Positions 14,090-45,800 are shown, counted from the stretch's first letter. The stretch: 64,000 nt of DNA from Thermoanaerobaculia bacterium (GCA_049664225.1 JBATEX010000057.1:82451-146450), one strand, 5' to 3'. Notes: generated by a model not told the origin, from the sequence alone. Made by a program: numbers and translations.

Positions 14090-14404
14090 CTACCCCTTGA
14101 GCTCCGAGGCTTGATCGAGCGAAGTGGTGCCTCGCAATCGATACAACGCAACAAGGATGGCCAGGCCGATTGCAGCCTCTCCAGCGGCCACCGCAATGAC
14201 GAAGACACCCATGATTTGACCGGTAAGGTCCGAGTACTGATACGAGAAGGCCGCCAGGTTGAGATTGACCGAGTTCAACACCAACTCGATCGACATCAGG
14301 ACCACGATCATGTTGCGCCGCGTGAGGATCCCGACAAGACCGATCACGAAGAGCATGGCGCTCAACACAAGATAGTGGTTGGTGGTGATCTCAAACATTG
14401 GCAT
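14090..14404 (-). CDS. nuoK: NADH-quinone oxidoreductase subunit K
   Basis: 104-aa protein with three TM helices. The segment SIELVLNSVNLNLAAF...AAGEAAIGLAI is typical of NuoK. Confidence 0.9.
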   Translation of the reverse strand: MPMFEITTNHYLVLSAMLFVIGLVGILTRRNMIVVLMSIELVLNSVNLNLAAFSYQYSDLTGQIMGVFVIAVAAGEAAIGLAILVALYRLRGTTSLDQASELKG

Positions 14405-14453
14405 TCTCGTCTCGTTGTCTCATCGATCCGGTGGACACACTCTCCCTCTCCAG

Positions 14454-14987: not shown

Positions 14988-15007
14988 CTCAGACGCTCAT
15001 CTCTCGA

Positions 15008-15487: not shown

Positions 15488-15495
15488 ACGTAAGC

Positions 15496-30502: not shown

Positions 30503-32203
30503 TCAGTCAATCGGTGCCACAACATCGGCGGAGCCGGGGCCGCGGGGGTCGGCCGCGGCCTCGAAGGTGCCATCTTCGAGATATCGAACGGCGTTGACTT
30601 TGGCGTCCCTGGTCCAGATCTCGATCTGATGCCCACGCCTCGAGAGCTCCTCTATGGTCTCCGGGCTCAAGGCGTCCGCTTCGGCCCGCAGCAGGTCGGG
30701 TAGCCACTGGTGGTGCAGCCGAGGGCGATCGACCGCACTCTGCAGCGGGTCGCCGTCCACCAGTAGATACAGGAGGACCTGAGCCACACCAGTCGGGATG
30801 CGAGAGCCTCCGCGACCTCCCAGAGCAACAGCCTCCTCCCCGCGCCAGGCGAGGGCCGGTGTCATCGAGGAGAGCATCCTGTGGCCAGGCCGTACCGCAT
30901 TGGCTTCGCCCTGGACCAACCCGAACATGTTCGGACGGCCGGGCGCAGCGGCAAAGTCGTCCATCTCGTTGTTGAGCAGGAAACCGGCCTCCGGAACCAG
31001 CAGTCGGCAGCCGAAGGTGTCGTTGAGGGTCGTGGTCAGCGTCACCAGATTCCCGGCGGCATCGGCCACCGCCACGTGGGTGGTGTCCGGGCTCTCGGCA
31101 GGCGGTGAGTCGGGGAGGCGGGCGATGTCGGCGGACAGCGATGCCTTGTCCATCTGAATCGTCGACCGCCGAAAGGCGAGCCACTCGGGGGCCAGCAGGC
31201 CTTGCGAGTCGGCCTCGGAGCTCCTCGGATCCCCCATGAGGAATCGATCGGCATACGCGCGGCGCCACACCTCGGCCAGCAGATGCGCCCGATCGGCACC
31301 GAAGCGGGGCATCTCGCCCCAGCCGAGACTCTCCAATAGGCCCAGAGTCTGCGCCACGATGATCCCTCCGGAGGCGGGAAGATCCATCGCCGCCATCTCC
31401 CACCCGAACGCACTGAACTCCAGCGGTCGCCGCCAGACCGCCCCGTAGCTCTGGAGATCGGACACCCGCAAGAGGCCACCGTGAGCCTCCGAAGCCCTTT
31501 CGATGGCCTCGGCAATCGGCCCCGAGGTCAGCGCTCGAGGTCCTTCCTCCGCATAGGCTTCGAGCGTCGCTGCCAGAGCCGGCAGCCTCATCCGGCTACC
31601 TACGGCCGGTGGCCGACCTTCCGGAAGCCATACCTTCGCCGTCTCGGGAAAGCGCTCGAGGCTCTCTTGCTCCTCGGCCAGGGAGTCGTGAAGACGACTC
31701 GTGACAAGGAAGCCATCGGAGGCCAGCAACTGGGCCGGCCTCAATACCCGGGGCCACGCGAGGCTGCCGAAGCGCTGGTGGAGCTCGTACAGCCCGACCG
31801 GCGACCCCGGCACACCTGCAGCGAGCGGTCCGATGATGGAGGCGTCCTTCACCGGCCGACCTTCGGTATCCAGATACATCTCCCGGGTGGCTGCGGCGGG
31901 CGCGATCTCCCGGAAGTCCAGGCTCGTCAGCTGGCCTTCCATCCGGACGACGGCGAATCCGCCACCGCCCAGATTGCCAGCCTGAGGATGCACGACAGCC
32001 AGCGCGAGGGCAGTCGCTACGGCCGCGTCGACGGCATTGCCACCGGCGCGCAGGATCTCGAGCCCGACCTCGGTCGAAGCTGGCTCCGCCGACGCCACTG
32101 CACCACCATGACCCCGTGCCGCCGGGAAAGAGGCTCCATCAGTCGCCGGAGCGACAAGAAGAGCTCCGAGGGCAAGAAAAATCGTAAAGGTCGAGCGTCG
32201 CAT
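30503..32203 (-). CDS. ggt: Gamma-glutamyltranspeptidase (Ntn hydrolase)
   Basis: Signal peptide from the ATG at 32203 (MRRSTFTIFLALGALLVAPA). The autoprocessing/nucleophile region is DTTHVAVADAAGNLVTLTTTLN, and the GGSRI motif is present. Confidence 0.9.
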   Translation of the reverse strand: MRRSTFTIFLALGALLVAPATDGASFPAARGHGGAVASAEPASTEVGLEILRAGGNAVDAAVATALALAVVHPQAGNLGGGGFAVVRMEGQLTSLDFREIAPAAATREMYLDTEGRPVKDASIIGPLAAGVPGSPVGLYELHQRFGSLAWPRVLRPAQLLASDGFLVTSRLHDSLAEEQESLERFPETAKVWLPEGRPPAVGSRMRLPALAATLEAYAEEGPRALTSGPIAEAIERASEAHGGLLRVSDLQSYGAVWRRPLEFSAFGWEMAAMDLPASGGIIVAQTLGLLESLGWGEMPRFGADRAHLLAEVWRRAYADRFLMGDPRSSEADSQGLLAPEWLAFRRSTIQMDKASLSADIARLPDSPPAESPDTTHVAVADAAGNLVTLTTTLNDTFGCRLLVPEAGFLLNNEMDDFAAAPGRPNMFGLVQGEANAVRPGHRMLSSMTPALAWRGEEAVALGGRGGSRIPTGVAQVLLYLLVDGDPLQSAVDRPRLHHQWLPDLLRAEADALSPETIEELSRRGHQIEIWTRDAKVNAVRYLEDGTFEAAADPRGPGSADVVAPID

Positions 32204-32310
32204 CGAGTCACTCTCCGTGCAGCAACCGGCCAATTCTAATTTACAGGCACCGCTTCAACCCTCACGGCCTCGAAGACCGTCCGGCGGTGAGTCGGACGCC
32301 TCGATCCCAA

Positions 32311-32403
32311 GCCCTCAAAGGCCAGCCGAAGGTACGCCGGCTGCCTCAACCCCCAAGCCCTCAGAGATCGGCCGGAAGGCTCGCCCGGCCGCCTCAACCC
32401 CTC
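32311..32403 (-). repeat. Two tandem REP-like hairpin units (32311-32362 full; 32363-32403 shorter, with a compensated stem)
   Basis: Unit 1 hairpin is cagccg-aaggtacgc-cggctg and unit 2 hairpin is cggccgg-aaggctcgc-ccggccg. Both are followed by cctcaaccCC. Unit 2 ends at the stop codon of the vWA gene. Confidence 0.85.
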
Positions 32404-33419
32404 TAGGGTCTCGTGCTGTTCAGCCCGACGAAGGTACCGCCGTTGCGGTGGCAGAGGATGCGCATCAGGGTAGCGAAGCGCACGCCCGTGGAGTCGGAGA
32501 CGCCAGAGACGGAGAACATGACTGGGAAGCCGACCGCGTGAATTCGGACCAGGCGGTTTCCCTTGGAGTCGCGTCGATTGATTCGGTCCACTGACGACAC
32601 GACATCGTCGATCGAGCGACCGGTGAACTCGTCACCAAAGACATAGATACTGATCTTCTTGTCCGGCGCGACGAAGGTGCGAATGGCTCTGGTAATGCCC
32701 TCCACCGGGCTACTGTTGCTGAAGACGCTCCAGGTCCGCAGTCGATCCAGAATGACCTTCCGCCTACCAGGAGTATCGGGGATCCACTTGCCAGCGTAGC
32801 TGGAGAACATGTACTGCCCCATGTCGTTCATGATCTGGATGCCCTTGACTTTTGGGTGGGCGTCCAGAACCTGGGTCATCTTCCGCATCACTGCCGGCCA
32901 CGCGTACGTGAACATGCTGCCCGAGGTGTCGATCACGAAAATGATGTACTCGCTGTCCACCGGGATTCCGCCCACCAACTGCTGTTCGACCTGCCGAGGC
33001 CGCTCCTCGCTCTGCTGCTGCAATCGCTGCATCTCTACGGTCAGCTTCTGCTGTGCCGCCAACAGTCGACCTTCGATGATGTCCTGAACCTCGGACTCTT
33101 GGGCCGAGGCAGCGAACTCGCCCTGGATTCGGGACAGATCGCCCTTCAGCCGAGCGATGAGCTCGCGCTCCTTCGAGAGCTGCTGTCGTCGGCTTATGAG
33201 ACTGCGGTTGAGAACTTCCGTCTCACCCCGGATCTCGTACAGCTCTTGCTCGAGTTTCTCCACGAGTCCGTCCAGATTGATCCTCGCCTGCTCCAGCGCC
33301 CGTGGCTCGCCGATCTTGGTGAGCACCAGAAGCAGTACGATCGCTCCGAAGCCGCAGCAGATCGCGTCGAGGAACGAGAGGCTGAAGCCCTCGGGAACAC
33401 CTCGGCGTCGGCCTCTCAT
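32403..33419 (-). CDS. ExbD/TolR-like TM helix + coiled coil + von Willebrand factor A (vWA) domain protein (paralogue 2)
   Basis: N-terminus MRGRRRGVPEGFSLSFLDAICCGFGAIVLLLVL, then about 110 aa of heptad-rich helix, then a vWA domain with MIDAS VIDTSGSM. Its start overlaps the upstream stop in an ATGA. Confidence 0.8.
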   Translation of the reverse strand: MRGRRRGVPEGFSLSFLDAICCGFGAIVLLLVLTKIGEPRALEQARINLDGLVEKLEQELYEIRGETEVLNRSLISRRQQLSKERELIARLKGDLSRIQGEFAASAQESEVQDIIEGRLLAAQQKLTVEMQRLQQQSEERPRQVEQQLVGGIPVDSEYIIFVIDTSGSMFTYAWPAVMRKMTQVLDAHPKVKGIQIMNDMGQYMFSSYAGKWIPDTPGRRKVILDRLRTWSVFSNSSPVEGITRAIRTFVAPDKKISIYVFGDEFTGRSIDDVVSSVDRINRRDSKGNRLVRIHAVGFPVMFSVSGVSDSTGVRFATLMRILCHRNGGTFVGLNSTRP

Positions 33420-34510
33420 GGCCAGTCTCCCGAGGGACTCATGAACGAGCCTCGAGTAGCCATGGCCAAGCGCCAGAAGGCACTCGGCGCCTGGGGGTCA
33501 CCTTCCATGGGAAACAGGATCACATTGACAGGAAAGCCCCGTGGAAGCTCCTCGACCGCCTTGTTGTAGAGCTTCATCCGCTCGCGTGCCGAGATGGTCG
33601 TCGAGCGCGGGCTGGCCTTGCCCTGAGTTGGCAGACCATCGACCAGAAGGATCACGTTGTCGGGGGCCGGTTGCAAGCCCCGGATCGCGGTGAAGGCGCG
33701 GTAGAGATTGGTGCCCTTTTCAGGCGCCACCCGAGATAGCCTCTCTACCGCATCGTCGAGGACTTCCTTGTTACCGCCGTCGAGCCACTGGCCGTCGCTG
33801 CCAGGGACAATGGATCCTGCTGCATCGTTGAACGTGTAGATCTGAAACCGACTGCTCTGCGGAATCTGGGTCGTGACCCAGTCCACGGTCGCGACGGCTT
33901 GACGCCACTTCTCCGCCCGAGTTCTGCGGGCAGCGGGAAGGTTGCGTCGCCGGATGATGTTGACGATGGTCTCGTCCAACATGCTCGCCGAGGCATCGAC
34001 GAGGATCAAGATCCTCTGCCCCCCCACCTTGAGGCCGGTGAGGTACTGGCGGTCGCCGTCACCGATGAAGGATCGCAAACGATCCCCTTGTGGATCTTCT
34101 TCCTCGGGTACGCCAGCCGACAGCCTTCGATTGCTTTCCTCCAAGGACTTCAGATCTGCCATCAGTCGATTGACATGCTCCTCCTGGGCCAGGGTGGTGT
34201 TCTCATAGGTCGCAAGCTCGACCTGAAGGTCCTCGATGTTCTCGATGATCTGCCGTGAGAGCCCTCTTGCCTCTGCCTTCCGCTGGTCCACCTGCCGAAG
34301 TGAGTTACGGACCTCGACCAGGTCCTTCTGGCCCTCGAGGACCTCCTGCTCGAGGCGATCCACCTCGGCCTTCAGATCTCCGGTCACGCGATCCGCCCGT
34401 GTGCCGACGGCCGCGTTGATGACCATGAAGAACAGCACCACGGCCCCGAAGCCGCAGGTCATGGCGTCCAGGAAGGAGAGACTGAAGACGTTGGTGGTGC
34501 GCCGCCGCAT
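33416..34510 (-). CDS. ExbD/TolR-like TM helix + coiled coil + vWA domain protein (paralogue 1)
   Basis: From the ATG at 34510: MRRRTTNVFSLSFLDAMTCGFGAVVLFFMV, followed by a coiled coil and a vWA domain with MIDAS LVDASASM. The track start at 34528 is an upstream TTG. Confidence 0.8.
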   Translation of the reverse strand: MRRRTTNVFSLSFLDAMTCGFGAVVLFFMVINAAVGTRADRVTGDLKAEVDRLEQEVLEGQKDLVEVRNSLRQVDQRKAEARGLSRQIIENIEDLQVELATYENTTLAQEEHVNRLMADLKSLEESNRRLSAGVPEEEDPQGDRLRSFIGDGDRQYLTGLKVGGQRILILVDASASMLDETIVNIIRRRNLPAARRTRAEKWRQAVATVDWVTTQIPQSSRFQIYTFNDAAGSIVPGSDGQWLDGGNKEVLDDAVERLSRVAPEKGTNLYRAFTAIRGLQPAPDNVILLVDGLPTQGKASPRSTTISARERMKLYNKAVEELPRGFPVNVILFPMEGDPQAPSAFWRLAMATRGSFMSPSGDWP

Positions 34511-34514
34511 GGCT

Positions 34515-35936
34515 CTACTCCACGGCAATCAGATGCAGCTCGATCCCAGGTGCTCCCAGGCGCAGTCGGTCACCGGCCGAAAGTTCTGCCCTACCTTCGA
34601 TACGGCTGCCGTTGAGATAGCTTCCGTAGGTGCTGTGGTCCTCGACTATCACCTCGTCGCCCTGACGCCTGAGCGAACAGTGACGCCGGGAGACTCCCGC
34701 CGTCTCTCCGGTGAGATTGACTCCTTTCGCCCCGCTGGGTATGGCGACGCCAAGCAATAGAGGGTCTCTGTCGATTGGGTGGGCTACTCCTTCGTATAGA
34801 AGATGAGTAGGGGGCTTTTTCTTCGTCCCCAACGCGGCCACAGGTGCTTCTGTAGGTGATTCCGGCGCGGCGACGGGCCTGCCGCCATGCGACTCGACCG
34901 GTACCGCGGCGACAAAGTCCACTTCAGGATCCCCAGCGCGAGCCAGGAGGTGCTGCAGCCGGAGGGCGCCGGCAGCGGCGGCGCCCGGCGCTAGGACCAC
35001 GGCCTCCGAGCCCACCGCCTCTTCGAGCTCTGACTGGAATCCGGGCAGCTTCGAGAGAGTCTGGGTGAGCAGCAGGGCCGGCCGGCTGCCTGTCCCAGCG
35101 ATGGCACGAGCCAGAGTCACAATCGCCTGATATGAAGCTCGAGCAGCACCCTGGATGTCATCAGCTGAGATCTCGGCAGCATGAGCCTTGTCTCGATGCT
35201 CCAGCGTCAGGAGGGCAAATCCATCTCGACCGATCTCTTCGATCCAACCCGGCAGCCGGTCGTAGAGATCCTGTTCGGTCTCCCCGTGGTGAAAGGGATC
35301 GAATCGGGTCTGCTGCACAAAACGACTGGCGATCAGTTTGGCCCAGACGTCCATCAACTTCGACAGGCCTGTGGATAACTCGCTCTCGACCCGCTGCCTC
35401 GCCAAGGTCCCGGTCCGCCCCAATTCGGTGACCACCGCTCGCTGCAGCAACAAATCGAGATGCAAGGCGCGGTCGGCCTCGGTCGCAGCCATGCTGGCCA
35501 CCACGGCGGCATCCGCGATGCCGGCAATCGGCATGCCGCAAGCTCGGCCGATTCCGAGAAGCAATCCGAGCTGCCGTTTCGAGTACATACCCGGGACGGT
35601 GAGCACGACAGCCTCGACACCCGCAACCGCGCCGGAATCCATGCTTCCCTGGACCTTCTTCCAAACCTCGGTGAGGTGGGCGTGAACGAGATCCGCGTTT
35701 CTCAACTCGCGAGGAAAGGGTCGGCCCAGAGGCTCGGTGTCGAGTCGATCCCAGAATCGGTTCGCCACCCATCTCGGCTTCAAACGGGCTCGGCTGAAGG
35801 CTTCCCTGCCCACGAGGATTCGACTCCCATCGAGCAGCGCAAACCCCGGACTCTGGTCCTGCCAATGCAGATCGACACCAGCCGCGACGACTCCAGCATC
35901 GTTCAACTCGACCGCAACCGTGGTCATATCTCTCAC
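34515..35936 (-). CDS. Cytoplasmic Hsp70/actin-fold (degenerate) protein with C-terminal FHA domain
   Basis: AVVLTVPGMYSKRQLGLLLGIGRACGMPIAGIADAAVVASMA parallels Hsp70 AVITVPAYFND.QRQATKDAG.IAGL.V.RIINEPTAAA. The C-terminus GVSRRHCSLRRQGDEVIVEDHSTYGSYLNGSRI is FHA. The start is the GTG at 35936 or the ATG at 35927. Confidence 0.75.
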   Translation of the reverse strand: MRDMTTVAVELNDAGVVAAGVDLHWQDQSPGFALLDGSRILVGREAFSRARLKPRWVANRFWDRLDTEPLGRPFPRELRNADLVHAHLTEVWKKVQGSMDSGAVAGVEAVVLTVPGMYSKRQLGLLLGIGRACGMPIAGIADAAVVASMAATEADRALHLDLLLQRAVVTELGRTGTLARQRVESELSTGLSKLMDVWAKLIASRFVQQTRFDPFHHGETEQDLYDRLPGWIEEIGRDGFALLTLEHRDKAHAAEISADDIQGAARASYQAIVTLARAIAGTGSRPALLLTQTLSKLPGFQSELEEAVGSEAVVLAPGAAAAGALRLQHLLARAGDPEVDFVAAVPVESHGGRPVAAPESPTEAPVAALGTKKKPPTHLLYEGVAHPIDRDPLLLGVAIPSGAKGVNLTGETAGVSRRHCSLRRQGDEVIVEDHSTYGSYLNGSRIEGRAELSAGDRLRLGAPGIELHLIAVE

Positions 35937-36754
35937 CCGGGCAGTGTCGACGAGGTCGCTTGAACCTGCAAATGTGCGATCAGATGCCGGTCCAGATAGG
36001 TCTCGGTGTCGAGCACCAGCCTGTCCTGGTGAAGCTGCAATTGATGCAACAGAAACATGAGCACGATGCTGATCAGCAGCGCGATGAAGGTGGAATTGAA
36101 GGCCACGCCGAGGCTCTGGGTGACCCCGGCGATGTCGCCCTCCACCGCCTTGTGTGCCTGCCCCAGGGCTTCACCGATGCCCCTCACAGTACCCAGGAAT
36201 CCGATGGAGGGAATGGCCCAGGCGATGTAACGCACCATGGAGAGCTCCGACTCGAGCCTTTCGGACTCCGCCTCGCAGACCGCATGCGACGTCGTCGAGG
36301 CGTTCTGGATGTCTCGAGTGGCGCTGAAACGGTCGAGAGCCGCCATCAGCGCCCTGGGCAGAAGCGCGCGCTGATCGGACGCGGGTAGCGACTGGATCTG
36401 GCGAGCGTACTCGCGAGCGTCCTCCGGCAGGATCTTCGTGCCCTCTGACACCGGTACCAGGTCCTCCTGCAGCAGCTTTCGCTCTTTGGCGGCCTGAGCT
36501 CCTTTCAGAGCCATGATGGCGAGCGCCCAAAGCGCCAGCACGAAGCAGGCCTCCTGCTCGAAGTCCCGGATGATCACCCAGATGGACCGCTCCTGCACGT
36601 AGTCCGGGTCAGCCTGCATCTCAGCTGTCTGCTCCGCCAGGACGGTGTCCGCCCTGGGGCGTACGACCGCCACGTAGAAGGCGTGAACCACGATCAATGC
36701 CACGATCAGGGACAGCGCCTGGTAGACGAACTCGACTGGATAGTCTTTCTTCAT
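35933..36754 (-). CDS. MotA/TolQ/ExbB-family proton channel protein
   Basis: 273 aa with 3-4 TM helices. The C-terminal signature is IPSIGFLGTVRGIGEALGQ...SLGVAFNSTFIALLISIVLMFL (compare TolQ/ExbB GLLGTV.G...AL..T..GL..AIP). Confidence 0.85.
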   Translation of the reverse strand: MKKDYPVEFVYQALSLIVALIVVHAFYVAVVRPRADTVLAEQTAEMQADPDYVQERSIWVIIRDFEQEACFVLALWALAIMALKGAQAAKERKLLQEDLVPVSEGTKILPEDAREYARQIQSLPASDQRALLPRALMAALDRFSATRDIQNASTTSHAVCEAESERLESELSMVRYIAWAIPSIGFLGTVRGIGEALGQAHKAVEGDIAGVTQSLGVAFNSTFIALLISIVLMFLLHQLQLHQDRLVLDTETYLDRHLIAHLQVQATSSTLPG

Positions 36755-36768
36755 GGCAGCTTGAGCCC

Positions 36769-37005
36769 TCAGATATCGACTGGAAAGGAAATGGCGCTGT
36801 CGGCCGGTAGCCGCTCCGAGGGTATGAAGGTCTCCAGGGGTTGCCCTCCGCCCTCTTCGGCCTCTTCGGCCTGCGGACTCCCTCCCGCACCCTGCTCAGC
36901 CGCCTCGGAAGCCTGGTCTCTCTCGGCCGAGCCTGGAGACCCGAAGGCGATCAGGGCTCCGGCGACCAACAGCAGGACAAGTATCGAGAATCGGATCAAT
37001 CTCAT
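36769..37005 (-). CDS. Small secreted acidic protein (78 aa, hypothetical)
   Basis: Signal peptide MRLIRFSILVLLLVAGALIAFG, with an SD (GGGAG) 8 nt upstream. It is wedged between the FGE-domain gene and the MotA-like gene. The C-terminus reads ERLPADSAISFPVDI. Confidence 0.6.
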   Translation of the reverse strand: MRLIRFSILVLLLVAGALIAFGSPGSAERDQASEAAEQGAGGSPQAEEAEEGGGQPLETFIPSERLPADSAISFPVDI

Positions 37006-37032
37006 GGCAAGCTCCCTAGAATGTTCGGCCCG

Positions 37033-39486
37033 TCATTCGGCATAGCGGGCGATTCTGAAGCCCACATCCGGACGCGGCTTGTTTCCGTAGTCGCGAAAAC
37101 TGAGACGCAGCTCCGTCACTGTGGAGTGCATCCAGCTGGAACCTCGGATGACATGATAGTCGCCACTCTCCGGTCCGAGGGGATCACGTGTCGGTGGTCC
37201 GGAGTTGCTGGGTAGGATGGCATAGTAGTCGTGAGTCCACTCGGCGACGTTACCGCCCATGTTCTTCAGACCCACCGCATTGGGCCCATAGCTGTCGACC
37301 GGAGAGGTGGCAGGAAAACCATCTTCATAGTCGGACAGGGTTGCCTCCAGATTGCCTTGTGCCGAAAGGTCAGCGTAGTTGCCAGACCCGGTGGCAACGG
37401 GCAGAGATCCACCCCAGGGGTATTTCAATCCGCCGCCACCGGCGAATCGAGCCGCCCAGGCCCATTCTGCCTCGGTAGGAAGTCGAAACCCGTTGCTCAA
37501 GGGGACGACGCCTTGCAGCTTGCCGCTACGAAAGGCATAGGCTGGCTCGAGCGAGGCCTTTTCACTGAGCCAGTTGCAGTACCGGGCCGCGTCCTCCCAG
37601 CTGACATTCACCACGGGATGGAGGTCATTCTCGAGACTCGCCCGTCCCGCCCTTCCCGATCGATGCTTCTCCATGAACTGCCGGAACTCCCGATTGGAGA
37701 CTTCTCGAGTCGCCATGTAGAAGGCCCTGGTGAGCTCGACCTGGCGGAGAGTCTCGTTAGCCCTCCGACCGGGCTCGCGCCTGGGTGCTCCGACGCGAAA
37801 GCGACCGGGCTCGATGAGTCTGAGCTCCTGGCCCTGTGGCCCCTGGATGACCGGCGGTACTGCTGCGGCCTTGGCTTCCTGCTCGGTCAGTAGGGTGACC
37901 TCCAGGGCCTGCGAGACGCCCGGGGTGGGAGTCAGGGTCTGGGTCTGGGAGATGAATCCCTGCTTCCTGATCTCGATCTGCTGCGGAACCGCTTGCAGAC
38001 GCAGGGTCTGATTCGCGGAGCCGCGGAGCTCGCCGTTGACAAAGAGCTCCGCCCCCGCGGGTCGGGTGATGATCTCGACCTCTCCGAGCCGCTCGACCAG
38101 GGCAATGACTTCGGACCGGTTCTCACCCGAGGCGACAGCCAACTCGAGGGTGCGAGTCTCGTAACCCCGTTTCGAAAAGCTCACCGCGTAGAGCCGCCCC
38201 GGAGCCATGGTGACCTCGAGCGGCGTCTGACCACGGTACTCGCCATCGACGGTCACGGTCGCTCCGCTTGGCTCGCTGCTCAGTGTCAGGCTGCCATCGT
38301 TGGGCAGTAGACGGACTGTCGGCAATTCGAGCGTCTCTTCGGCCTTTACCTGAATCCTGCCGCGGTGGGGCTTGAAGCCTGCAAGACTGATCTCTAGAGC
38401 TCGATTGCCTTCGAGAACCTCGGTGGTCAGAGGAGTGCGACCAACGAGTGAGCCGTCGATTCTCACGGCGGCGGCAGCCGGTTGGCTGCTGAGGGTCACA
38501 GTGGCCCAGAGGGGCTGCAACTCCACTCCGAGCGTCTGCGTCGCACCGCCCCCTGCGATGGCTATCTCGGTCGCGAAGTCTCGGTAGCCCTCCGCCTGAA
38601 TCAGCAGGCTGTGCTCGCCTGGCGTCAGCTCGAGGGGCTCGAGCGGCCACACACCCTGCTTCTCGCCGTCTACCCACAGCGTCGCCGCTGCCTCGACATC
38701 CAACTTCACGGCCAACAGCCCTGGCAGCCTCTCGAGCTGGAACTCGAAGACCTGCGTACTGGCCTGCGTCACCTCGATGGGGCTTCTCAGCTGCCGATAC
38801 CCCTTGCTTTCAGCGACCACCGTGTAGGTACCGGGCCGGAGAAGATACCTGCCACCGATCTGGAGTCGAAGCAAGCCACCTTCCACCTGCAGAGACTCCG
38901 GTGTAGGTTCGACCCGAACTTCCACTGGTCGGGCGGAGAAGAGGTACCAGGCAGCCATCGCAAGCAGGACCAGTACCAGCCAAAGAGCCACAGTGGCCCG
39001 CCGTGGGGCCCACCGCCTGCGGCGACCGGCCTCGAGCGAGGCCGGCGTGAACTCCACGGGGTGAATCCTCTGACTACCTGCGCCTGCGTCTTGGCTACGC
39101 GCGGAAGCCGCGGCCATGACTACTGCCGGGGGCCTGGTGCTGTCGTCGGACTCCTCGTGTCGAACCTGTAGGACGGTTCCACTTCCATCCGAGGAGAACA
39201 CGAGCTCTGCTTCGCCAACACGCAGGACGTCTCCGTGACGCAACCACTGAGACGTGGTCACGGGTCCGCCGTTGCAGAAGACCGCCTCGCCGCCAGGAAT
39301 GGGCTGCAGAAAGACCTCAAGCTCGGCGATCCCCAGATGGGCGATCGGACCGAGAACAGGCCGTCCCGGAATCTCGATATCAGCGTCGGGACCACCAATC
39401 GTCAGGGGAAAATCCCCCTCGCCGTACTGCCGCGCGGTTCCTTTCGCCCGCAGCTCAAAGGTGAGATTCAAATCTGCTCCTCGCAC
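37033..39486 (-). CDS. FHA - TM - five PEGA repeats - formylglycine-generating-enzyme/sulfatase-modifying (FGE-sulfatase, SUMF1-like) domain protein
   Basis: N-terminal FHA (GDFPLTIGG...FCNGGPV...GDVLRVGEAELVF) is followed by a TM helix (VALWLVLVLLAMAAWYLF) and five repeats of the PEGA type. The C-terminal domain reads YMATREVSNREF...VVNVSWEDAARYCNWLS...LPTEAEWAWAAR...GNVAEWTHD...IRGSSW...GFRIARY. The start codon is GTG. Confidence 0.85.
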   Translation of the reverse strand: MRGADLNLTFELRAKGTARQYGEGDFPLTIGGPDADIEIPGRPVLGPIAHLGIAELEVFLQPIPGGEAVFCNGGPVTTSQWLRHGDVLRVGEAELVFSSDGSGTVLQVRHEESDDSTRPPAVVMAAASARSQDAGAGSQRIHPVEFTPASLEAGRRRRWAPRRATVALWLVLVLLAMAAWYLFSARPVEVRVEPTPESLQVEGGLLRLQIGGRYLLRPGTYTVVAESKGYRQLRSPIEVTQASTQVFEFQLERLPGLLAVKLDVEAAATLWVDGEKQGVWPLEPLELTPGEHSLLIQAEGYRDFATEIAIAGGGATQTLGVELQPLWATVTLSSQPAAAAVRIDGSLVGRTPLTTEVLEGNRALEISLAGFKPHRGRIQVKAEETLELPTVRLLPNDGSLTLSSEPSGATVTVDGEYRGQTPLEVTMAPGRLYAVSFSKRGYETRTLELAVASGENRSEVIALVERLGEVEIITRPAGAELFVNGELRGSANQTLRLQAVPQQIEIRKQGFISQTQTLTPTPGVSQALEVTLLTEQEAKAAAVPPVIQGPQGQELRLIEPGRFRVGAPRREPGRRANETLRQVELTRAFYMATREVSNREFRQFMEKHRSGRAGRASLENDLHPVVNVSWEDAARYCNWLSEKASLEPAYAFRSGKLQGVVPLSNGFRLPTEAEWAWAARFAGGGGLKYPWGGSLPVATGSGNYADLSAQGNLEATLSDYEDGFPATSPVDSYGPNAVGLKNMGGNVAEWTHDYYAILPSNSGPPTRDPLGPESGDYHVIRGSSWMHSTVTELRLSFRDYGNKPRPDVGFRIARYAE

Positions 39487-41453
39487 CGTACTTCGAGCGG
39501 CTTCGAGCTCTGGTTCGGGGAGACCGTGAGCCGTCGCCTGACATCCCGGTAGCCCGCCCGGCTGCCGACGACCGTATAGGTTCCGGGCCGAAGGTCGAGG
39601 ACCTGCTGGGTGAATCTCCCCAAACGACCGACGCGGTAGACCGTCACTTCAGTGAGGTTGTCGGACACCAGTTCGACCCTGATCGGCGTTGTCGCTACGG
39701 CAAGCCGCTCGGCCAGACTGTCGATCTGCCGACGCAGCACCGGACCCGAAGGCTGCGTTGACCTGGCCTCACTCAAGACCTGCTCGGCACTCTCCAAGAC
39801 ATCATCGTTGGACAGCCTCTCGGAATGGCCGATGTGATCCTCCAGCTGCTCGGCGAGCTGGGATCGAACCTCGGCTCTGGCTTTACCCTCGCGGGCAAAT
39901 CGAATCGAGGGGTCGAGGCCCAAGGCAGCATCGTACTCCTGCAGAGCCGCATCCCAATCTTCCTTCCGCTCGAATTCCAGGGCCCGTGAGCGATGCTCGG
40001 AGATCGCGGCGAGACGCAAGCTCTCCTCAGCTCGTCCCAGGCCATCCAAGGCCTCCGGAGAGCCTGGCGAGAGCACCAGTGCGCGCTGGAAGGCCTGCTT
40101 GGCGATTGCGGAATCACCAGCCTCCAGCGCTGTCAGGCCCTTTGACATGGCCTGCCGGAATTCGGCATCCGATCTCGGCTCGAACTTGGGCACGGGCTCG
40201 ACACTGGGCGGTCCGGTCTCCTGCCGCGCTTGCACCACAGCGCCAGACTCGACGACCCGATCTACGGTTGACTCGGAGCCGGCTTCCTGAGGGACGGACT
40301 CCGATAGGACCTCGAGATCCTCTCGATCCTCAGACTCGGCCGACGACCGATGGATCGGGACCGCCCGGCTCTCTTCGGCCTCCGAGGCTTCGCCAATCGG
40401 ACTGCTATCGCTCACCGCAGCGCTTTCAGCCTCACTTCTCCGCTGCACCCAGCCGGGCAGGAACACGAAGACAGCCAAGACGAGCACCCCGAGCGCCGCA
40501 AAGACCGCGACCGTCATCCAGAGCCGGATCTTGCTGTCAGAGGCCTGGCCCGCAACCTGGCGGGCCCGGGAACGAGGAGCCTCTATCTTCGGGGGTGGTG
40601 ACAGCCGCACCGAGCGCGACCGAATCTCGGGCGCTCGAGTCTCGGTGACCGAGAGCTCTTCACCGATTTTCTCAAGTTCCTCTCGCACCAGAGCCATGTC
40701 GGCTGGACGGTCGGCCGGGGATTTGGCCAGCATTTCGCCAATCAGATCCCGGAGGCGCGCTGGAGCCGTACTGCTGGGGTCGATGGGTTCCGGGGTCTCT
40801 TGCCGAATCCGTTCTTCGTCGGCATTGGGCCAAAAAGGAGGATGACCCGAGATCAGGTGATACGCCAGCGTCCCCAGCCCGTAGATGTCGTCGGAGGGCT
40901 GTGGAGGTAGTCCCGCCAATTGCTGTGGGCTCATGCTGTATCGCGACCCACCCCCCTCGAGGAGCAGGTCTCCCTCGCCCGGGTGCAAGGCTCCAGCGAT
41001 GCCGAAGTCCATCAGCCGCGGCTGCCCAGTCCGATCCAAGAGGATGTTGCTGGCTTTGACATCCCGGTGCACCACACCGGCCTGATGCGCGTGGTCGAGG
41101 GCTTCAGCCAGGGGCACGAGAGCTTTGACGATGTCCTCGATTGCACCCCCTATCAGGGACTCGATGGAGCCCCCATCGACGTGCTCCATGGTGATGAAGC
41201 TCACGCCGTCGCACTGATGGAAGTCGAAGACGCGGATGATGTTGGGGTGGGACAACCGGCGGGCGTTCCGACACTCGTGGCGAAGAAGCTCGATCGTCGC
41301 CGGCGAGGCATCGGTCGGTACGACCTTAGTGACCACCTCCTGGTCGAGTTGACGATCGCGTGCCAACCAGACCTCGCCCATACCGCCCCGTCCCAAGGGG
41401 CGGAGCAGGGTGAAGCGGGAGCAGAGGCTGGTGCCGCTTTCGAGATGGAGCAT
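39468..41453 (-). CDS. Ser/Thr protein kinase - TM - TPR-like - PEGA-like domain protein
   Basis: From the ATG at 41453, the Hanks kinase motifs are GRGGMGEVWLA, HRDVKASNILL, DFGIA and SPQQ. The TM helix is MTVAVFAALGVLVLAVFVFL. The extracytoplasmic part has TPR-like helices and the C-terminal segment LRPGTYTVVGSRAGYRDV. Confidence 0.88.
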   Translation of the reverse strand: MLHLESGTSLCSRFTLLRPLGRGGMGEVWLARDRQLDQEVVTKVVPTDASPATIELLRHECRNARRLSHPNIIRVFDFHQCDGVSFITMEHVDGGSIESLIGGAIEDIVKALVPLAEALDHAHQAGVVHRDVKASNILLDRTGQPRLMDFGIAGALHPGEGDLLLEGGGSRYSMSPQQLAGLPPQPSDDIYGLGTLAYHLISGHPPFWPNADEERIRQETPEPIDPSSTAPARLRDLIGEMLAKSPADRPADMALVREELEKIGEELSVTETRAPEIRSRSVRLSPPPKIEAPRSRARQVAGQASDSKIRLWMTVAVFAALGVLVLAVFVFLPGWVQRRSEAESAAVSDSSPIGEASEAEESRAVPIHRSSAESEDREDLEVLSESVPQEAGSESTVDRVVESGAVVQARQETGPPSVEPVPKFEPRSDAEFRQAMSKGLTALEAGDSAIAKQAFQRALVLSPGSPEALDGLGRAEESLRLAAISEHRSRALEFERKEDWDAALQEYDAALGLDPSIRFAREGKARAEVRSQLAEQLEDHIGHSERLSNDDVLESAEQVLSEARSTQPSGPVLRRQIDSLAERLAVATTPIRVELVSDNLTEVTVYRVGRLGRFTQQVLDLRPGTYTVVGSRAGYRDVRRRLTVSPNQSSKPLEVRCEEQI

Positions 41454-41473
41454 ACGTCGGTGCACCGCTGGAT

Positions 41474-42712
41474 TCAGTGGTCCACCGAATTCCCTGCGGT
41501 TTGCCCTGCCTCGACGTTGGGGTCGACAGGTAGTCCGGTCTCCTCGGCATAGATCTTTCGCAGCATCTCCCGCCATTCGGCGAACTGACCCTCCATGGTG
41601 CCACTGAGCCGCAATGTCTCGCCTTCGACCTCGACGACGAGTGGAGCGACTTCCACATCCAGGGAGCCACCCAGCTCACGCAGGGCCTCCACATGCATCT
41701 TGGCCTCCTGTGACTTCGCCATGCCACTCTGAATGGCTGCCATGCCACCAATCACGGCCACATCTCGCGCCACCCTTCCCGCAGAGCCGTTCGTTGGGGC
41801 GACCACGGCACCGAAGATCGCCAGCGCACCCACGATCTTTTGCATCCGGGCCTGGCGACGAAGCTTCTCCAAAGCCAGCTGCTCCTCGTAGCTGAACGAG
41901 CGCCAGTTGTCATAGGGCTCTTCCATCGACGTACTGAAGGTGGCGTAGTACTCGTTCAGGGTGTCGATGAATGTGTAGTCGCGCTCTCTGATCTCGGCGA
42001 TGCGTTGCATCATGGAGTCATCCTCGGCAGGGAGGTGCTCCAACTGGTAGCGCTCCTTGCGATCGAGGCTGAGATAGTCCTCGAAAGCCACCGGCGCCAG
42101 GTCGGCAGCGAACCGCAGGTCGGCGACATTGCGCAGCTTCATCAGCTCCGCTTGCTTCCTCTTCTGTCGTTCGACCAGCATATCGTTGGCGATGGCGGAA
42201 TATAGAGCATGGAAGGGGTCCTTCTTCTTGACTTGCTCCGGGGAGTACACCAGGACGTCGGCCTCCTGCTTGTAGCGTTTCTCGAGCCAGACCTCCCCGG
42301 CTGCGTCCCGCACCTGGACCTCCACCACCAGGTCCTTGCCTGTGGATTTGATGACCCCGCCAGACACTGTCACTTCGGCACTGGATGTGCCTTCCGGCAT
42401 CACTCGGACTGCACCCCAATTACCCGTCGACTGCAAGGTCTGCTTGAGCTGATAGGGGATGAACCGCGCCTCGGCCTTTCGGACCTCCGGGAAGACTCCC
42501 GCCTTCTCCGCTTTGGTCACAGGCACGCTCGGGTCCATCAGACCCGGATCGAAGACCTCGATGGTCACGTCCAGCAGAGCCTCATCTGGAACTTCAGTGG
42601 CGGCCTGGATCAGAGTCACCGTGCTCACGGCGCTCGACGAGCCCGTCGAGGCGCATCCCGCAACCAGCAGGGTCGCCAAGGCCAGGCCGGCTATTTCTCT
42701 TTGCATCTTCAT
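41474..42712 (-). CDS. Lipoprotein, hypothetical (412 aa)
   Basis: Lipobox LLVAGC after a signal peptide. No family was recognised. A hydrophobic/Gly-rich segment (IVGALAIFGAVVAP...VIGGMAAIQSG) lies near the C-terminus. Confidence 0.7.
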   Translation of the reverse strand: MKMQREIAGLALATLLVAGCASTGSSSAVSTVTLIQAATEVPDEALLDVTIEVFDPGLMDPSVPVTKAEKAGVFPEVRKAEARFIPYQLKQTLQSTGNWGAVRVMPEGTSSAEVTVSGGVIKSTGKDLVVEVQVRDAAGEVWLEKRYKQEADVLVYSPEQVKKKDPFHALYSAIANDMLVERQKRKQAELMKLRNVADLRFAADLAPVAFEDYLSLDRKERYQLEHLPAEDDSMMQRIAEIRERDYTFIDTLNEYYATFSTSMEEPYDNWRSFSYEEQLALEKLRRQARMQKIVGALAIFGAVVAPTNGSAGRVARDVAVIGGMAAIQSGMAKSQEAKMHVEALRELGGSLDVEVAPLVVEVEGETLRLSGTMEGQFAEWREMLRKIYAEETGLPVDPNVEAGQTAGNSVDH

Positions 42713-42727
42713 CCTGGACCACCCCGG

Positions 42728-43615
42728 TCAGCCGCTCTTCTTCGCAGCCGCTTTGTATTCACGGTATTCATCCCATAGCTTCTCACGCAACTCGGGATCG
42801 TCTTCGTTCATCGCCGCCTCGCGGAGCTGTCGCGCCACGATGTCGTCGTCGCTGCCGTCGGGAATATCGGGAGGAACCCTGCCACCACCACTCCCACCAC
42901 CGGCCGATCCGGACCGCGCAGAGCTTCCTTCGCCCGACTCCTCTTCACTGGTGCCCTCCCCGGCAGCAGACTCCGACGCAGCACTGCCGGTTTGCTCTTC
43001 TCCCGTTCCGCCGCCCCCTACTGGATCTCCAAACCCGGTGTCCTCGTCTCCGAAAGCGCCGCTTCCGCCCGAAGACCCCGAGGCAACGTCGGCAGCAGCC
43101 TCCGCCTCGGCTCTCTCTCGGGCAGCCGCCTGTTGCTCACTGGCCAGCATTCCGTCGACTTTCTCCAAAGAAGCAATCAACTCCTGGTCCAGCTTCGATG
43201 CTGGCTCACCTCCGGTCAAGGGACCAGCCGGCGGGCCTGCTCCGCTACCCGCACTGCCCCCCTGGGTCTGGCTTTCAGCGCCCTCCGCACCCTGGGAACC
43301 GGCCTGTCCACCGGCCGACTCTTCACCCTCCCCCCCGGCGGAACCGTCCTCTCCAGAGGACTCTCCCTGCCCCTCCTGCGTACCCGACGGTTCGCCGCCT
43401 TCGGAGCCGGCAGCACCCTCACCACCACCCTCCTGTCCCGCCTCCGACCCGCCCTCGCCACTCGCCTTGTCCTCGGGTGCGGATGAAGTCGTGGTCTCCG
43501 GCTCGGGGCGCGCAGATGGGGTTGTCGACGTCTGACTGCTGGCGCAAGCCACCACCAGCGCCAGGGCGATAGGAGGAACGACTCGCTGCAGCCATTGTTG
43601 AATTCTGAAGTCCAT
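42728..43615 (-). CDS. Acidic Gly/Glu/Ser-rich lipoprotein with conserved-looking helical C-terminus (hypothetical)
   Basis: Signal peptide plus lipobox (LALVVAC), with an SD (AAGGAAG) upstream of the ATG at 43615. A low-complexity acidic region of about 200 aa follows. The C-terminus reads PDIPDGSDDDIVARQLREAAMNEDDPELREKLWDEYREYK. Confidence 0.7.
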   Translation of the reverse strand: MDFRIQQWLQRVVPPIALALVVACASSQTSTTPSARPEPETTTSSAPEDKASGEGGSEAGQEGGGEGAAGSEGGEPSGTQEGQGESSGEDGSAGGEGEESAGGQAGSQGAEGAESQTQGGSAGSGAGPPAGPLTGGEPASKLDQELIASLEKVDGMLASEQQAAARERAEAEAAADVASGSSGGSGAFGDEDTGFGDPVGGGGTGEEQTGSAASESAAGEGTSEEESGEGSSARSGSAGGGSGGGRVPPDIPDGSDDDIVARQLREAAMNEDDPELREKLWDEYREYKAAAKKSG

Positions 43616-43831: not shown

Positions 43832-44896
43832 TCACACCCAGAGCGTGAGACCCGACAGGAGAAGGAACGCCGCGAGGTAAATCCAGCGCCCCCAGTGATC
43901 GATCCTGTGAGCTTGTGCCTCCTTGCCCTGCTTGGCAAGCCTGGCAGTCACGATCACTTCGCCCAAAGCCGCAAAGACCAGCAGCGTCGTACCCAAGAGG
44001 AACTGGTCGGCGCGAGTCATGTAGGCCACATTGGGCAGCGCACTCCGCATGCTGAAGCGAAAGGCGATCAGGGAAAAGACCGCGGCCGTCGCGATACCGA
44101 CCTGCGGGGGCACGACCGATGGATCGATCCAAAACACAGACCAGGCCATCAGCACGATGAGGACCAGGGGCACCATCATGGTGAGGCCGAAGTAGGACGA
44201 CTGTCGTCGGGCTTCGAGAAAGAAACTCGCACCAGCGAATTGACCTTGTATTGCAGGCAGCTGCACCGCTTCGATCCTGGGCTCACCCTCTTCGATCACC
44301 CAGCCTGTGACCGAGAAATCACCCCGAATTCCCGTCAACTCCTCATTGAGGACGAAGCTGATCTCCTCCGGGCCGTAGCGGTAGGCCACGACATGAATCG
44401 GCAGGACCTGCGTATCGAACGGGAACTCCTTAAGCTCCAGTCTCGTTGACAGGGTTGCTTGCAGCCTCTGTGCGTAGGACACCAGACCGTCCGGCTTCAC
44501 CTGCACGACATTGGGCAGAAGGGCCTCGACTTCGCGCTGATTCAGCGCCCCGAGCTCCGCATGCCAGACCTCTTCCAAAGGCAAGACCAACTCCTCGAGA
44601 CCCACTTCCTCGGCCGAGAACGCCAGTCGCGGGTCTCGCCAGCGAAGGGTCATCGCCAGGTCGACCTCGAAGGTCTGCGTAGCGTCGTCGATCGCAATGA
44701 CATCGAGAACGTAGACGCCGATCTCCGCTCGAGTGGGGGTGCCTCCGGGATCGGGCCGAACGCGGATCCACTGTTTGGCCTCGAGATCCGTGTACGGTTC
44801 GGTCGCTTGCAGAGTCGGGAGATACCCCAGGCTACCGAGCAGTAGCCAGCCGATGGCCCATCCAAGCTGATTTCGACCTCTCGCGCTTCCTGACAT
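43832..44896 (-). CDS. Prokaryotic pentameric ligand-gated ion channel (Cys-loop receptor superfamily, GLIC/ELIC-like)
   Basis: Signal peptide and a beta-rich extracellular domain of about 200 aa, with WRDPRL and the Cys-loop-equivalent FPFDTQ. Four TM helices follow (M1 YFGLTMMVPLVLIVLMAWSVFW; M2 VGIATAAVFSLIAF; M3; C-terminal M4), with a short M3-M4 loop. Confidence 0.85.
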   Translation of the reverse strand: MSGSARGRNQLGWAIGWLLLGSLGYLPTLQATEPYTDLEAKQWIRVRPDPGGTPTRAEIGVYVLDVIAIDDATQTFEVDLAMTLRWRDPRLAFSAEEVGLEELVLPLEEVWHAELGALNQREVEALLPNVVQVKPDGLVSYAQRLQATLSTRLELKEFPFDTQVLPIHVVAYRYGPEEISFVLNEELTGIRGDFSVTGWVIEEGEPRIEAVQLPAIQGQFAGASFFLEARRQSSYFGLTMMVPLVLIVLMAWSVFWIDPSVVPPQVGIATAAVFSLIAFRFSMRSALPNVAYMTRADQFLLGTTLLVFAALGEVIVTARLAKQGKEAQAHRIDHWGRWIYLAAFLLLSGLTLWV

Positions 44897-44972: not shown

Positions 44973-45800
44973 CTAGCCGAGGACCAACGCTAGGAGACCC
45001 AGAGCGAAACAGTACGGGGCGAACCAGGACAGACGCCCTTTCTTGACCAGGCGAACGAGGAGCGCGAGGCAGAAGTAGCCGGTCAGGGCCGCAGCTGTGA
45101 ATCCAACAACGAGAGCTGTCGTGCCGACGCCGTCATGCGCTCCGCCAATGCGAAGCAGGAGGGCACCGAGGATCGAGGGAATCGAGAGCAAGAAAGAGTA
45201 GCGCGCCGCCGTTTCTCGATCGATTCCAAGCAACAGGGCTGCAGCGATTGTAATTCCGGATCGACTGATTCCCGGAGTGATGGCCAGGCCCTGTACGACC
45301 CCGATAGTCAGAGCATCAACCCAGGTCATCTCGGCTGCATCGCGGCCACCGCTGCGAGCCAATCGCGTCAGTAACAGTACTGTTCCGGTAACAATCAGCA
45401 TGAGTCCGACGAGACGCACGGAGCCGAAGAGTCGCTCGAAAGTGTCCTCGAAGGCGAGTCCAATCACCGCTGTCGGGATCGTGCCGACGACAATCAGGAG
45501 CGCGAAACGGAAGCCGGGGTACGACTTCAGCGTCTCCTTCCAGGAGTGTCCCAAGGCGAGATTCCGGAGCCCGGCGAAAGTCTCCGCGACCAGCTTCACG
45601 ATGTCTTTCCGGTAGTACCAGATGACCGCGACCAGGGTACCGAGGTGCAACACGATGTCGAAGAAGAGTGCCGGTTCTTCGAGGCCGAAGAGGTGCTGGG
45701 CGATCACCAGATGACCGGAGGAGCTGATGGGTAGGTACTCCGTCGCACCCTGCACGATGCCCAGAACAAGGGCTTGAAACCAGTCGATCATCGTGCGCAT
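44973..45800 (-). CDS. uppP: Undecaprenyl-diphosphate phosphatase
   Basis: LGIVQGATEYLPISSSGH and GLAITPGISRSGITI are BacA/UppP signature motifs. The protein is 275 aa and polytopic. Confidence 0.92.
   Translation of the reverse strand: MRTMIDWFQALVLGIVQGATEYLPISSSGHLVIAQHLFGLEEPALFFDIVLHLGTLVAVIWYYRKDIVKLVAETFAGLRNLALGHSWKETLKSYPGFRFALLIVVGTIPTAVIGLAFEDTFERLFGSVRLVGLMLIVTGTVLLLTRLARSGGRDAAEMTWVDALTIGVVQGLAITPGISRSGITIAAALLLGIDRETAARYSFLLSIPSILGALLLRIGGAHDGVGTTALVVGFTAAALTGYFCLALLVRLVKKGRLSWFAPYCFALGLLALVLG

Follow-up and report, generated by a model that had tools for sequence, protein, structure and literature searches.

A nine-gene cassette of a Thermoanaerobaculia bacterium joins the core of a predicted TolQ-like/vWA motor family to accessory genes and an optional phospho-threonine layer

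What does a set of nine tightly spaced genes encode when a MotA/TolQ/ExbB-type channel subunit stands among them without its usual partners? This question is raised by a 64,000-nucleotide (nt) stretch of DNA from a Thermoanaerobaculia bacterium (GCA_049664225.1 JBATEX010000057.1:82451-146450; the whole stretch is referred to as the window). An initial annotation, made from the sequence alone, had proposed that nine minus-strand genes of the window form a coupled operon for an undescribed envelope system driven by the proton motive force (PMF). The nine open reading frames (ORFs), termed A to I from upstream to downstream, were all found at 32403-43615 (Table 1), and their junctions were read from the ORF coordinates: gaps of 15 nt (A/B) and 20 nt (B/C), a 19-nt overlap (C/D), gaps of 27 nt (D/E) and 14 nt (E/F), a 4-nt overlap (F/G), a 4-nt gap (G/H), and a 4-nt overlap (H/I), with the 19-nt overlap and the 27-nt gap as the extremes. 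The cassette is set off by gaps of 216 nt upstream of A and 169 nt downstream of I. We report here that the cassette is a genuine and widespread variant of the 5:2 ion-driven motors with a parts list richer than published. On balance, we consider it somewhat probable that the operon encodes a PMF-driven 5:2 motor together with the envelope apparatus on which this motor acts.

The channel subunit F is divergent. TolQ TM2-TM3 aligns with F, which retains the GT and T residues matching the pore threonines, and these positions are invariant or nearly so in 45 diverse representatives. The NCBIfam equivalog scores of F were far under their cut-offs (TolQ, 28.5 bits vs 221; ExbB, 23 bits vs 135). The initial annotation had assigned the B-subunit role to the two vWA proteins, H and I, and had called them ExbD-like. 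Their role as B subunits is supported by an invariant F-L-D…C-G-F-G-A motif, which opens the transmembrane (TM) helix of both proteins and includes an Asp; residues F13, D15, C19, G20, F21, and G22 of H were invariant across three phyla, as were F16, L17, D18, C22, G23, F24, G25, and A26 of I among its homologs. We take this motif to resemble the TM motifs in which ExbD (PFIDVMLVLLIIFMV) and TolR carry their Asp. The ExbD likeness thus holds for the TM motif but does not extend to the Pfam search, in which H and I had no ExbD match. When the sequence was read directly, neither trans-pore helix was found to have a His or an SHLS motif. Since profile searches of H and I against the PDB sequences were swamped by coiled-coil matches, the vWA fold is shown by AlphaFold2 (AF2) and Foldseek: the AF2 model of H shows a single helix over residues 11-131 that a disordered linker joins to a confidently predicted vWA domain, and all top 50 Foldseek matches to this model contained a vWA domain. 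The VWA_2 match was weak for the H of the window and was recorded for many H homologs. Both proteins retain the DxSxS…(T/S)…D residues of a metal-ion-dependent adhesion site (MIDAS), with D164-x-S166-G-S168 (DxSGS) invariant in I. H and I are 25% identical to each other (BLASTP E-value 5e-16), align by hhalign over their full length (99.9%, E-value 3e-35), and were always paired in the loci mapped below. The topology proposed earlier, with the kinase, FHA domains, and Hsp70-fold protein in the cytoplasm and the vWA, PEGA, TPR, and FGE domains and the lipoproteins in the periplasm, agrees with hydropathy.

A core of this type has been published before, as a prediction. Williams-Jones et al. (Mol Biol Evol 2025; PMC12204202) computationally predicted a motor family composed of a TolQ-like protein and paired trans-pore helix (TPH)-vWA proteins, in which the vWA genes are tightly linked to tolQ homologs, mostly as heterologous pairs and with no tolR or exbD nearby. 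The trans-pore helix of that family is TolR/ExbD-like, carries a conserved Asp, and is ringed by conserved Thr in an AlphaFold 3 (AF3) model of 5:2 stoichiometry; the family was found in Proteobacteria and Verrucomicrobia, with its function unknown (PMC12204202). The cassette of the window shares four features of the published family: (i) a tolQ-like gene, F, with no tolR, exbD, or motB in the cassette or its flanks; (ii) an adjacent, nonidentical pair of TM-tethered vWA proteins, H and I; (iii) a trans-pore helix that has a conserved Asp and no SHLS motif; and (iv) conserved threonines in the channel subunit. The match to the TPH-vWA family, the published seed of which is from Idiomarina loihiensis, is by these features. 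F relatives were also detected here in Gammaproteobacteria and Verrucomicrobiota, as reported in PMC12204202. Because this family was already predicted, the core is not undescribed, and what stands of the earlier claim of novelty concerns the genes around it: neither an Hsp70-fold/FHA protein, a kinase, a PEGA/FGE protein, lipoproteins, nor a small secreted protein is mentioned in PMC12204202, the text of which nowhere contains the terms kinase, PEGA, sulfatase, Hsp70, DnaK, or forkhead. Acidobacteriota are not among the phyla it lists, and our literature searches found no description of the accessory genes of the cassette. What appears to be new is the Hsp70-fold protein G, the A-E module with the conserved secreted protein E, the phospho-threonine layer with its co-variation, and the acidobacterial distribution.

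The distribution of the channel subunit is broad. At least 8,000 matches to F were returned by a protein search, the best 120 of which were 76-92% identical to F and included several labeled Acidobacteriota or Thermoanaerobaculia; close homologs of the cassette proteins likewise carried Thermoanaerobaculia or Acidobacteriota labels. Among 50%-identity representatives, F relatives formed 181 clusters at an E-value ≤1e-30, and a scan of one genome per species identified at least 598 species genomes with a confirmed F-relative locus. These relatives are spread over Acidobacteriota, Gammaproteobacteria, Verrucomicrobiota, and Bacteroidota, and none was found in the plasmid collection that was searched. 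One candidate F-G fusion, P0254 (657 amino acids [aa]), was rejected as a frameshifted assembly artifact, as garbled out-of-frame stretches separate its segments of 75-79% identity to F and G.

The nine window proteins were mapped onto 80 loci of the species scan and five loci from metagenome assemblies. All nine genes were found in order in the six complete loci of Acidobacteriota. In the 33 complete loci of Gammaproteobacteria, the genes C, D, and F-I were present throughout, and the counts for E, B, and A were 32, 31, and 28, respectively; the gammaproteobacterial loci derive from Woeseiaceae, Pseudohongiella, Porticoccus, Cellvibrionaceae, Microbulbifer agarilyticus, and M. taiwanensis. 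This conserved order bears out the proposal of one co-oriented cassette built around a MotA/ExbB-type channel. Only F-G-H-I of the nine were found in Verrucomicrobiota (Opitutales), in 15 of 15 complete loci, which supports the F-G-H-I core named in the initial annotation as the recurrent one. The A-E genes co-occur as a block or not at all in the mapped loci, and the flanks vary among genomes, so that the cassette is the conserved unit. About one quarter of the verrucomicrobial loci carry a C-like TPR protein on the opposite strand. A Saprospiraceae locus (Bacteroidota, L046) has the order D-E-F-H-I with ~175 nt between F and H, which leaves no room for G.

This pattern bears on whether the motor could be a housekeeping energizer of the Ton/Tol type whose true partners lie elsewhere, with A-E as unrelated passengers. 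The retention of F-G-H-I alone in verrucomicrobial loci and the published description, in which the unit consists of the motor with its vWA pair, are what such an energizer would predict. However, A-E are kept beside F-I in the same order and with tight spacing across two phyla, and the cytoplasmic parts of C and D vary together with the G FHA domain (see below), an association not easily accounted for unless the proteins are functionally linked. We therefore regard this explanation as quite unlikely.

A second possibility, that the cassette is a Zorya-type antiphage or envelope-surveillance defense with inward signaling via the kinase and FHA proteins, was also weighed against its distribution. 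F has a weak ZorA match (E-value 6.6e-4), the kinase generically resembles the defense-associated kinases PD-T4-6 and mad6, and some Marinacidobacterales contigs place the cassette near transposases, an antitoxin gene, and a DruA-domain gene. Against this, no nuclease, helicase, or other effector was found and no PADLOC system was matched, the kinase matches reflect generic Pkinase similarity, and many cassettes are devoid of the kinase and FHA domain. F is also 76-92% identical among its 120 closest listed relatives and lies here between housekeeping genes; strong conservation and housekeeping neighbors are atypical of patchy defense islands. Because of this housekeeping context, the strong sequence conservation, and the lack of an effector, a function in envelope maintenance or at the cell surface is favored over phage defense, which we consider highly improbable.

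The G protein adjoins F in Acidobacteriota, Gammaproteobacteria, and Verrucomicrobiota and combines two domains. Its C-terminal FHA domain was identified by Pfam (2.6e-12). The N-terminal 350 residues had no Pfam match, and the Hsp70 fold that had been proposed for them is supported by structure: the AF2 model of G has a pLDDT of 90, and the top 50 Foldseek matches were all Hsp70/Hsp110 proteins (E-values down to 7e-17), the highest TM-score being 0.77, against a chain of 6w6e (ClpB with the DnaK nucleotide-binding domain [NBD]). In addition, the G family profile matched Sse1/Hsp110 at an E-value of 1.3e-3. In our comparison with the DnaK motifs, conservation is missing from two of the three Gly-rich nucleotide loops, which seem degenerate (DLGGGTFD aligned to DLLLQRAV), suggesting that G, which is predicted to be cytoplasmic, may be a nonhydrolyzing scaffold. 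As G orthologs start with M.T.AIELND, the start codon of the window G may be the ATG three codons in, at 35927, in which case the F/G overlap would become a 5-nt gap.

The accessory genes A, B, and E encode two lipoproteins and a small secreted protein. A consists of a variable, acidic body rich in Gly, Ser, and Glu followed by a conserved C-terminal segment, P.DIPDG.DDDIVARQLREAA..E.DPELREKLWEEYRKYK; this motif was detected in 6 of 6 acidobacterial, 39 of 49 gammaproteobacterial, and 0 of 29 verrucomicrobial loci, and A had no match in Pfam, NCBIfam, or PADLOC. E is similar in layout, with an acidic low-complexity middle ahead of a nearly invariant C-terminus, F.P(S/T)E..(S/P).D..(V/I).FPVDI-COOH, that runs directly into the stop codon. 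An E-type ORF ending just upstream of F was present in 6/6 acidobacterial, 48/49 gammaproteobacterial, 1/1 Bacteroidota, and 0/29 verrucomicrobial loci. With position, signal peptide, and C-terminal motif kept in 55 of the 56 nonverrucomicrobial loci, E is, on comparative sequence grounds, a genuine gene. Around residues 295-335, B contains a hydrophobic stretch that is rich in Gly and glycine-zipper-like; none of its 39 orthologs had a significant Pfam match, and a PDB profile search revealed no relative. In Verrucomicrobiota, two divergently transcribed lipoprotein genes lie upstream of F (23/28 and 26/28 loci), one of which encodes a long glycine-zipper segment and a coiled coil, and neither has a Pfam match. 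Homology of these lipoproteins to B was not supported (hhalign probabilities of 31% and 4%); they may correspond to A and B in function.

The remaining accessory proteins, C and D, link the periplasm to a potential signaling layer in the cytoplasm. C has a cytoplasmic kinase domain (aa 8-270) with the catalytic motifs GxGxxG, VVTK, HRDVKASN, and DFG all intact, a TM helix (aa 314-332), and a periplasmic part of TPR and beta-sandwich (aa ~430-661), the latter with only a weak match at its C-terminus (CarboxypepD_reg, E-value 0.0085). D is composed of an FHA-like domain (aa 1-110), a linker with T117-x-P-P, a TM helix (aa 165-183), beta-sandwich modules represented by four PEGA stretches and one CarboxypepD_reg module, and an FGE-like domain (aa 556-814). 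Profile searches thus recovered most of the domains that had been assigned to the cassette, namely Pkinase and TPR in C, PEGA and FGE in D, MotA_ExbB in F, and FHA in G, with the exception of PEGA in C. The FHA assignment of D was sustained in part: its N-terminal profile matches FHA structures (3po8, Ki-67) at an E-value of 1.1e-4, but the domain is divergent and the canonical Ser/His pair is not conserved.

When the loci were compared, the cytoplasmic domains of C, D, and G were found to vary in concert. A strong kinase match in C was obtained for 21 loci, in every one of which the G FHA domain scored 64-130 bits and kept its canonical signature, G-V/I-S-R-x-H-C … S..GTFLNG; the DFG motif was retained in 18 of these loci and the HRD-type motif in 15. 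In the kinase-containing loci, every recorded length of D was 812-832 aa, 17 of the 21 had a detectable FHA-like domain at the D N-terminus, and the T-x-P-P of the cytoplasmic linker of D was invariant in, and confined to, these loci. By comparison, C and D of the 25 kinase-less gammaproteobacterial loci start with tails of ~40 residues before the TM helix, such that D is short and the C orthologs retain the periplasmic part only. The C-terminal domain of G was retained in these 25 loci and in 29 of 29 verrucomicrobial loci, with its phosphopeptide-binding residues lost. Four gammaproteobacterial loci (L066, L070, L071, and L074) carry a decayed kinase in C (Pkinase only 4e-13 over a partial region, with no HRD or DFG) together with a short D and a degenerate G FHA domain; these loci appear to represent a stage on the way to losing the phospho-threonine layer. 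The kinase of C, the FHA-like part of D, and G's canonical FHA domain are present or absent as a unit; they clearly travel together as an optional regulatory layer, which ties the accessory C and D functionally to the core protein G. Gating of the system by phospho-threonine signaling had been suggested as a general property. This was not borne out, as the kinase and canonical FHA domain are missing in about half of the sampled gammaproteobacterial cassettes and in all verrucomicrobial ones, and such gating is therefore lineage-specific.

The FGE domain of D raised a further alternative: a machine for surface motility, adhesion, or secretion similar to Agl-Glt or GldLM of type IX secretion (T9SS), in which the motor energizes an outer-membrane complex, the GldK-like FGE domain of D serves as a sub-outer-membrane scaffold, and the vWA heads act as adhesin couplers. 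The best NCBIfam match of this domain is indeed GldK/PorK (120.7 bits, 9.4e-35), and D resembles these proteins in being noncatalytic: the catalytic Cys pair of FGE is absent in D (GSSWMHSTVTELRL) and in the orthologs with a readable motif, indicating that the domain is a binding module and not an enzyme. Agl-Glt likewise joins a TolQR-like motor, a plug, FHA-TM and TPR proteins, and a lipoprotein adhesin with a vWA domain (PMC11761067, PMC9946355). However, the GldK score is only about one third of the family cut-off (350 bits), D is anchored in the inner membrane and is not a lipoprotein, the vWA domains here are on the motor axle and not on a surface lipoprotein, and neither the cassette nor its flanks yielded an outer-membrane beta-barrel or any component of the Glt, Gld, Spr, or Por type. 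This explanation is thus viewed as unlikely.

For the reading that we prefer, a PMF-driven motor and the envelope apparatus on which it acts, the following mechanism may be considered. Five copies of F would form a TolQ/ExbB-like wheel in the inner membrane, the pore of which would receive the N-terminal helix of one H and that of one I; there, the conserved Asp of each helix would take up protons. The helices of ~120 residues, likely a heterodimeric coiled coil, would reach the zone of the peptidoglycan and outer membrane, and each arm would end in a vWA head with an intact MIDAS. Ion flow would turn or pull the H/I axle and so allow the vWA heads to exert force on acidic ligands, for which the acidic C-terminal module of A, the …FPVDI-COOH end of E, and the lipoprotein B are the best candidates. 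The TPR domain of C may be an alternative receptor for the free C-terminus of E, by analogy to TPR carboxylate clamps. The TPR/beta-sandwich part of C and the PEGA stalk of D with its GldK-like FGE domain would provide a scaffold, with D perhaps anchored to peptidoglycan. Association of PEGA with peptidoglycan is a prediction in the literature (PMC7159879). On the cytoplasmic face, G might act as an adaptor or clutch. In kinase-containing lineages, C would phosphorylate a threonine, for which the T-x-P-P of the D linker is the leading candidate, and the G FHA domain would read this mark and couple the assembly or activity of the motor to a periplasmic signal. The output most likely belongs to the maintenance of, or transport at, the outer membrane or cell surface. 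A more specific version, in which a widespread trans-envelope machine uses metal-dependent vWA "hands" on a rotor dimer to grip the acidic tails of dedicated outer-membrane lipoproteins and of a small secreted protein, with an Hsp70-fold clutch and a lineage-specific kinase-FHA switch, is put forward tentatively, as a possibility.

Several points weigh against the motor model as drawn here. We infer the 5:2 stoichiometry, the heterodimerization of H and I, and all of the ligand assignments. The topology of F is ambiguous by hydropathy, with three or four TM helices. The verrucomicrobial loci retain the MIDAS without A-E, so that A and E are not universal ligands, and the lack of room for G in the Saprospiraceae locus indicates that the core does not strictly require G. 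Furthermore, the degenerate loops of G come from our own motif comparison and not from the output of a tool, and the co-variation counts are not phylogenetically independent, with the kinase loci derived from few lineages.

The surroundings of the cassette were also surveyed (Table 1). Its flanking genes have unrelated housekeeping functions, including RlmN and a PabB-like enzyme. Directly upstream of the cassette lies a gene for a homolog of prokaryotic pentameric ligand-gated ion channels, an adjacency that is not conserved in other genomes. A PilB/GspE-type secretion ATPase gene lies ~6 kb from the cassette, and no connection between the two was seen. At 10001-16000 of the window, the AT skew is 0.20-0.26 over ~6 kb, compared with ~0-0.08 elsewhere. 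The scan for promoters and terminators was uninformative (0 promoters; 4 terminator-like sites vs 6.1 expected). Three loci with an acidobacterial-type F (P0100), L001-L003, have small ORFs, a PhdYeFM antitoxin gene, and several transposases at 14.3-20.8 kb, after the cassette, and L002 has a DruA-domain gene also beyond the cassette; the neighborhood in L001-L003 is variable and rich in mobile elements.

Table 1. Coordinates of the cassette genes, their parts, and other features. Positions are those of the window unless a locus (L) is named.
Feature	Coordinates	Strand	Evidence or remark
A, lipoprotein	42728-43615	-	lipobox LVVAC
A, conserved C-terminal segment (~45 aa)	about 42746-42889		
B, 412-aa lipoprotein of an unnamed family	41474-42712	-	lipobox LVAGC
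C, Hanks-type Ser/Thr kinase, TM, TPR, C-terminal beta-sandwich	39468-41453	-	Pkinase 5.3e-40, TPR matches
D, FHA-like, TM, five PEGA/beta-sandwich modules, FGE-sulfatase-like	37033-39486	-	PEGA 1.6e-44, FGE-sulfatase 1.8e-49
E, 78-aa secreted protein	36769-37005	-	signal peptide, acidic low-complexity middle, conserved C-terminus
E, conserved C-terminus	about 36772-36834		
F, divergent MotA/TolQ/ExbB-type channel subunit	35933-36754	-	MotA_ExbB 9.7e-15 (Pfam)
G, Hsp70-NBD-fold domain and canonical FHA	34515-35936	-	AF2, Foldseek, Pfam
G, Hsp70-NBD-fold domain (aa 1-349)	34890-35936		
G, FHA domain (aa 376-473)	34518-34811		
H, predicted B-subunit 1	33416-34510	-	TM helix, coiled coil, vWA
H, trans-pore helix with Asp15	34418-34486		
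H, vWA domain	33419-34033		
I, predicted B-subunit 2, H paralog	32403-33419	-	TM helix, coiled coil, divergent vWA
I, trans-pore helix with Asp18	33318-33386		
Gamma-glutamyltranspeptidase	30503-32233		cassette flank
BacA/UppP	44973-45800		cassette flank
Pentameric ligand-gated ion-channel homolog	43832-44896	-	Neur_chan_LBD 6.1e-20, Neur_chan_memb 3.9e-11
PilB/GspE-type secretion ATPase	24398-26110	+	T2SSE 6.9e-139, MshEN domain
L071, C ortholog with decayed kinase	5304-7574		
L046, D-E-F-H-I	1210-6237		
L027, verrucomicrobial lipoprotein gene	8394-9119	-	example
L027, verrucomicrobial lipoprotein gene	9137-9814	-	example

Understanding of 5:2 ion-driven motors is confined to a few, namely those of the flagellar, Ton, Tol, gliding/T9SS, and Zorya types, and each of these opened a field; the family described here is common yet has no reported phenotype or function. 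The comparison of loci provides it with a parts list in three sections: the motor core, a module of the periplasm and outer membrane that includes candidate ligands, and a phospho-threonine switch that is optional. As the full cassette without the kinase is present in cultured Microbulbifer species, the predictions made here are testable.

The cassette is not a member of the Ton, Tol-Pal, MotAB, Zorya, GldLM/T9SS, or Agl-Glt systems or of the phosphorylation pathway of the type VI secretion system (T6SS), and it shares features with several of them. The initial annotation had noted the lack of TonB, TolA, TolR/ExbD, MotB-OmpA, flagellar, gliding, and Zorya effector genes, and none was detected in the cassette or beside it. 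The likeness to Ton and Tol-Pal lies in a channel of the same Pfam family, predicted here to be a PMF-driven pentamer, a B-type helix with a protonatable Asp, and a force that is presumed to be passed on through the periplasm to partners in the outer membrane. In contrast to these systems, H and I are devoid of the ExbD/TolR periplasmic domain, F falls under the equivalog cut-offs, and the cassette has no third subunit of the TonB/TolA type with an SHLS motif; no TonB/TolA-type transducer, TolB/Pal, or TonB-dependent receptor was found among the nine proteins or the flanking ORFs. The force-transmitting arm in both the published and the proposed models is the B subunit itself, and if the vWA heads apply force, this subunit would also be the transducer, unlike the TonB/TolA arrangement. 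A flagellar MotAB assignment is not supported, with no OmpA match and no flagellar genes near the cassette. Zorya is similar in having a MotAB-like complex outside of a flagellar context, but F does not have the long ZorA tail, its only ZorA match spans 95 residues, and none of the other Zorya models (ZorC, ZorD, ZorE) was matched by PADLOC. The T6SS pathway PpkA-Fha-PppA is represented only by a TagH score of 28.7 bits vs a cut-off of 120, and no phosphatase or T6SS gene was found in the cassette or its flanks.

GldLM/PorLM is a 5:2 motor with a B subunit that has a long periplasmic arm, and both GldLM-GldK and the cassette include a noncatalytic protein of the FGE-sulfatase fold. D differs from GldK as an inner-membrane bitopic protein with an internal TM helix and no lipobox, and no matches to GldL, GldM, or GldN were found in the cassette. 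GldLM-GldK resembles the cassette, and Agl-Glt of Myxococcus may be considered the thematically closest system, with its TolQR-like motor, heterodimeric plug, FHA-TM protein, TPR proteins, and a vWA domain in the force path (PMC11761067). In the Agl-Glt model, the FHA-TM-periplasmic protein GltG is predicted to dock on the TolQ-like pentamer (PMC11761067). Glt/Cgl homologs were not detected in the cassette, the only trace being a GltG match to the G FHA domain (E-value 0.059), and the vWA domain of Agl-Glt is on an outer-membrane lipoprotein. The cassette encodes no outer-membrane barrels. If the tentative vWA-hand proposal is true, such a machine would represent a new functional class beside the Ton, Tol-Pal, flagellar, gliding, and Zorya motors.

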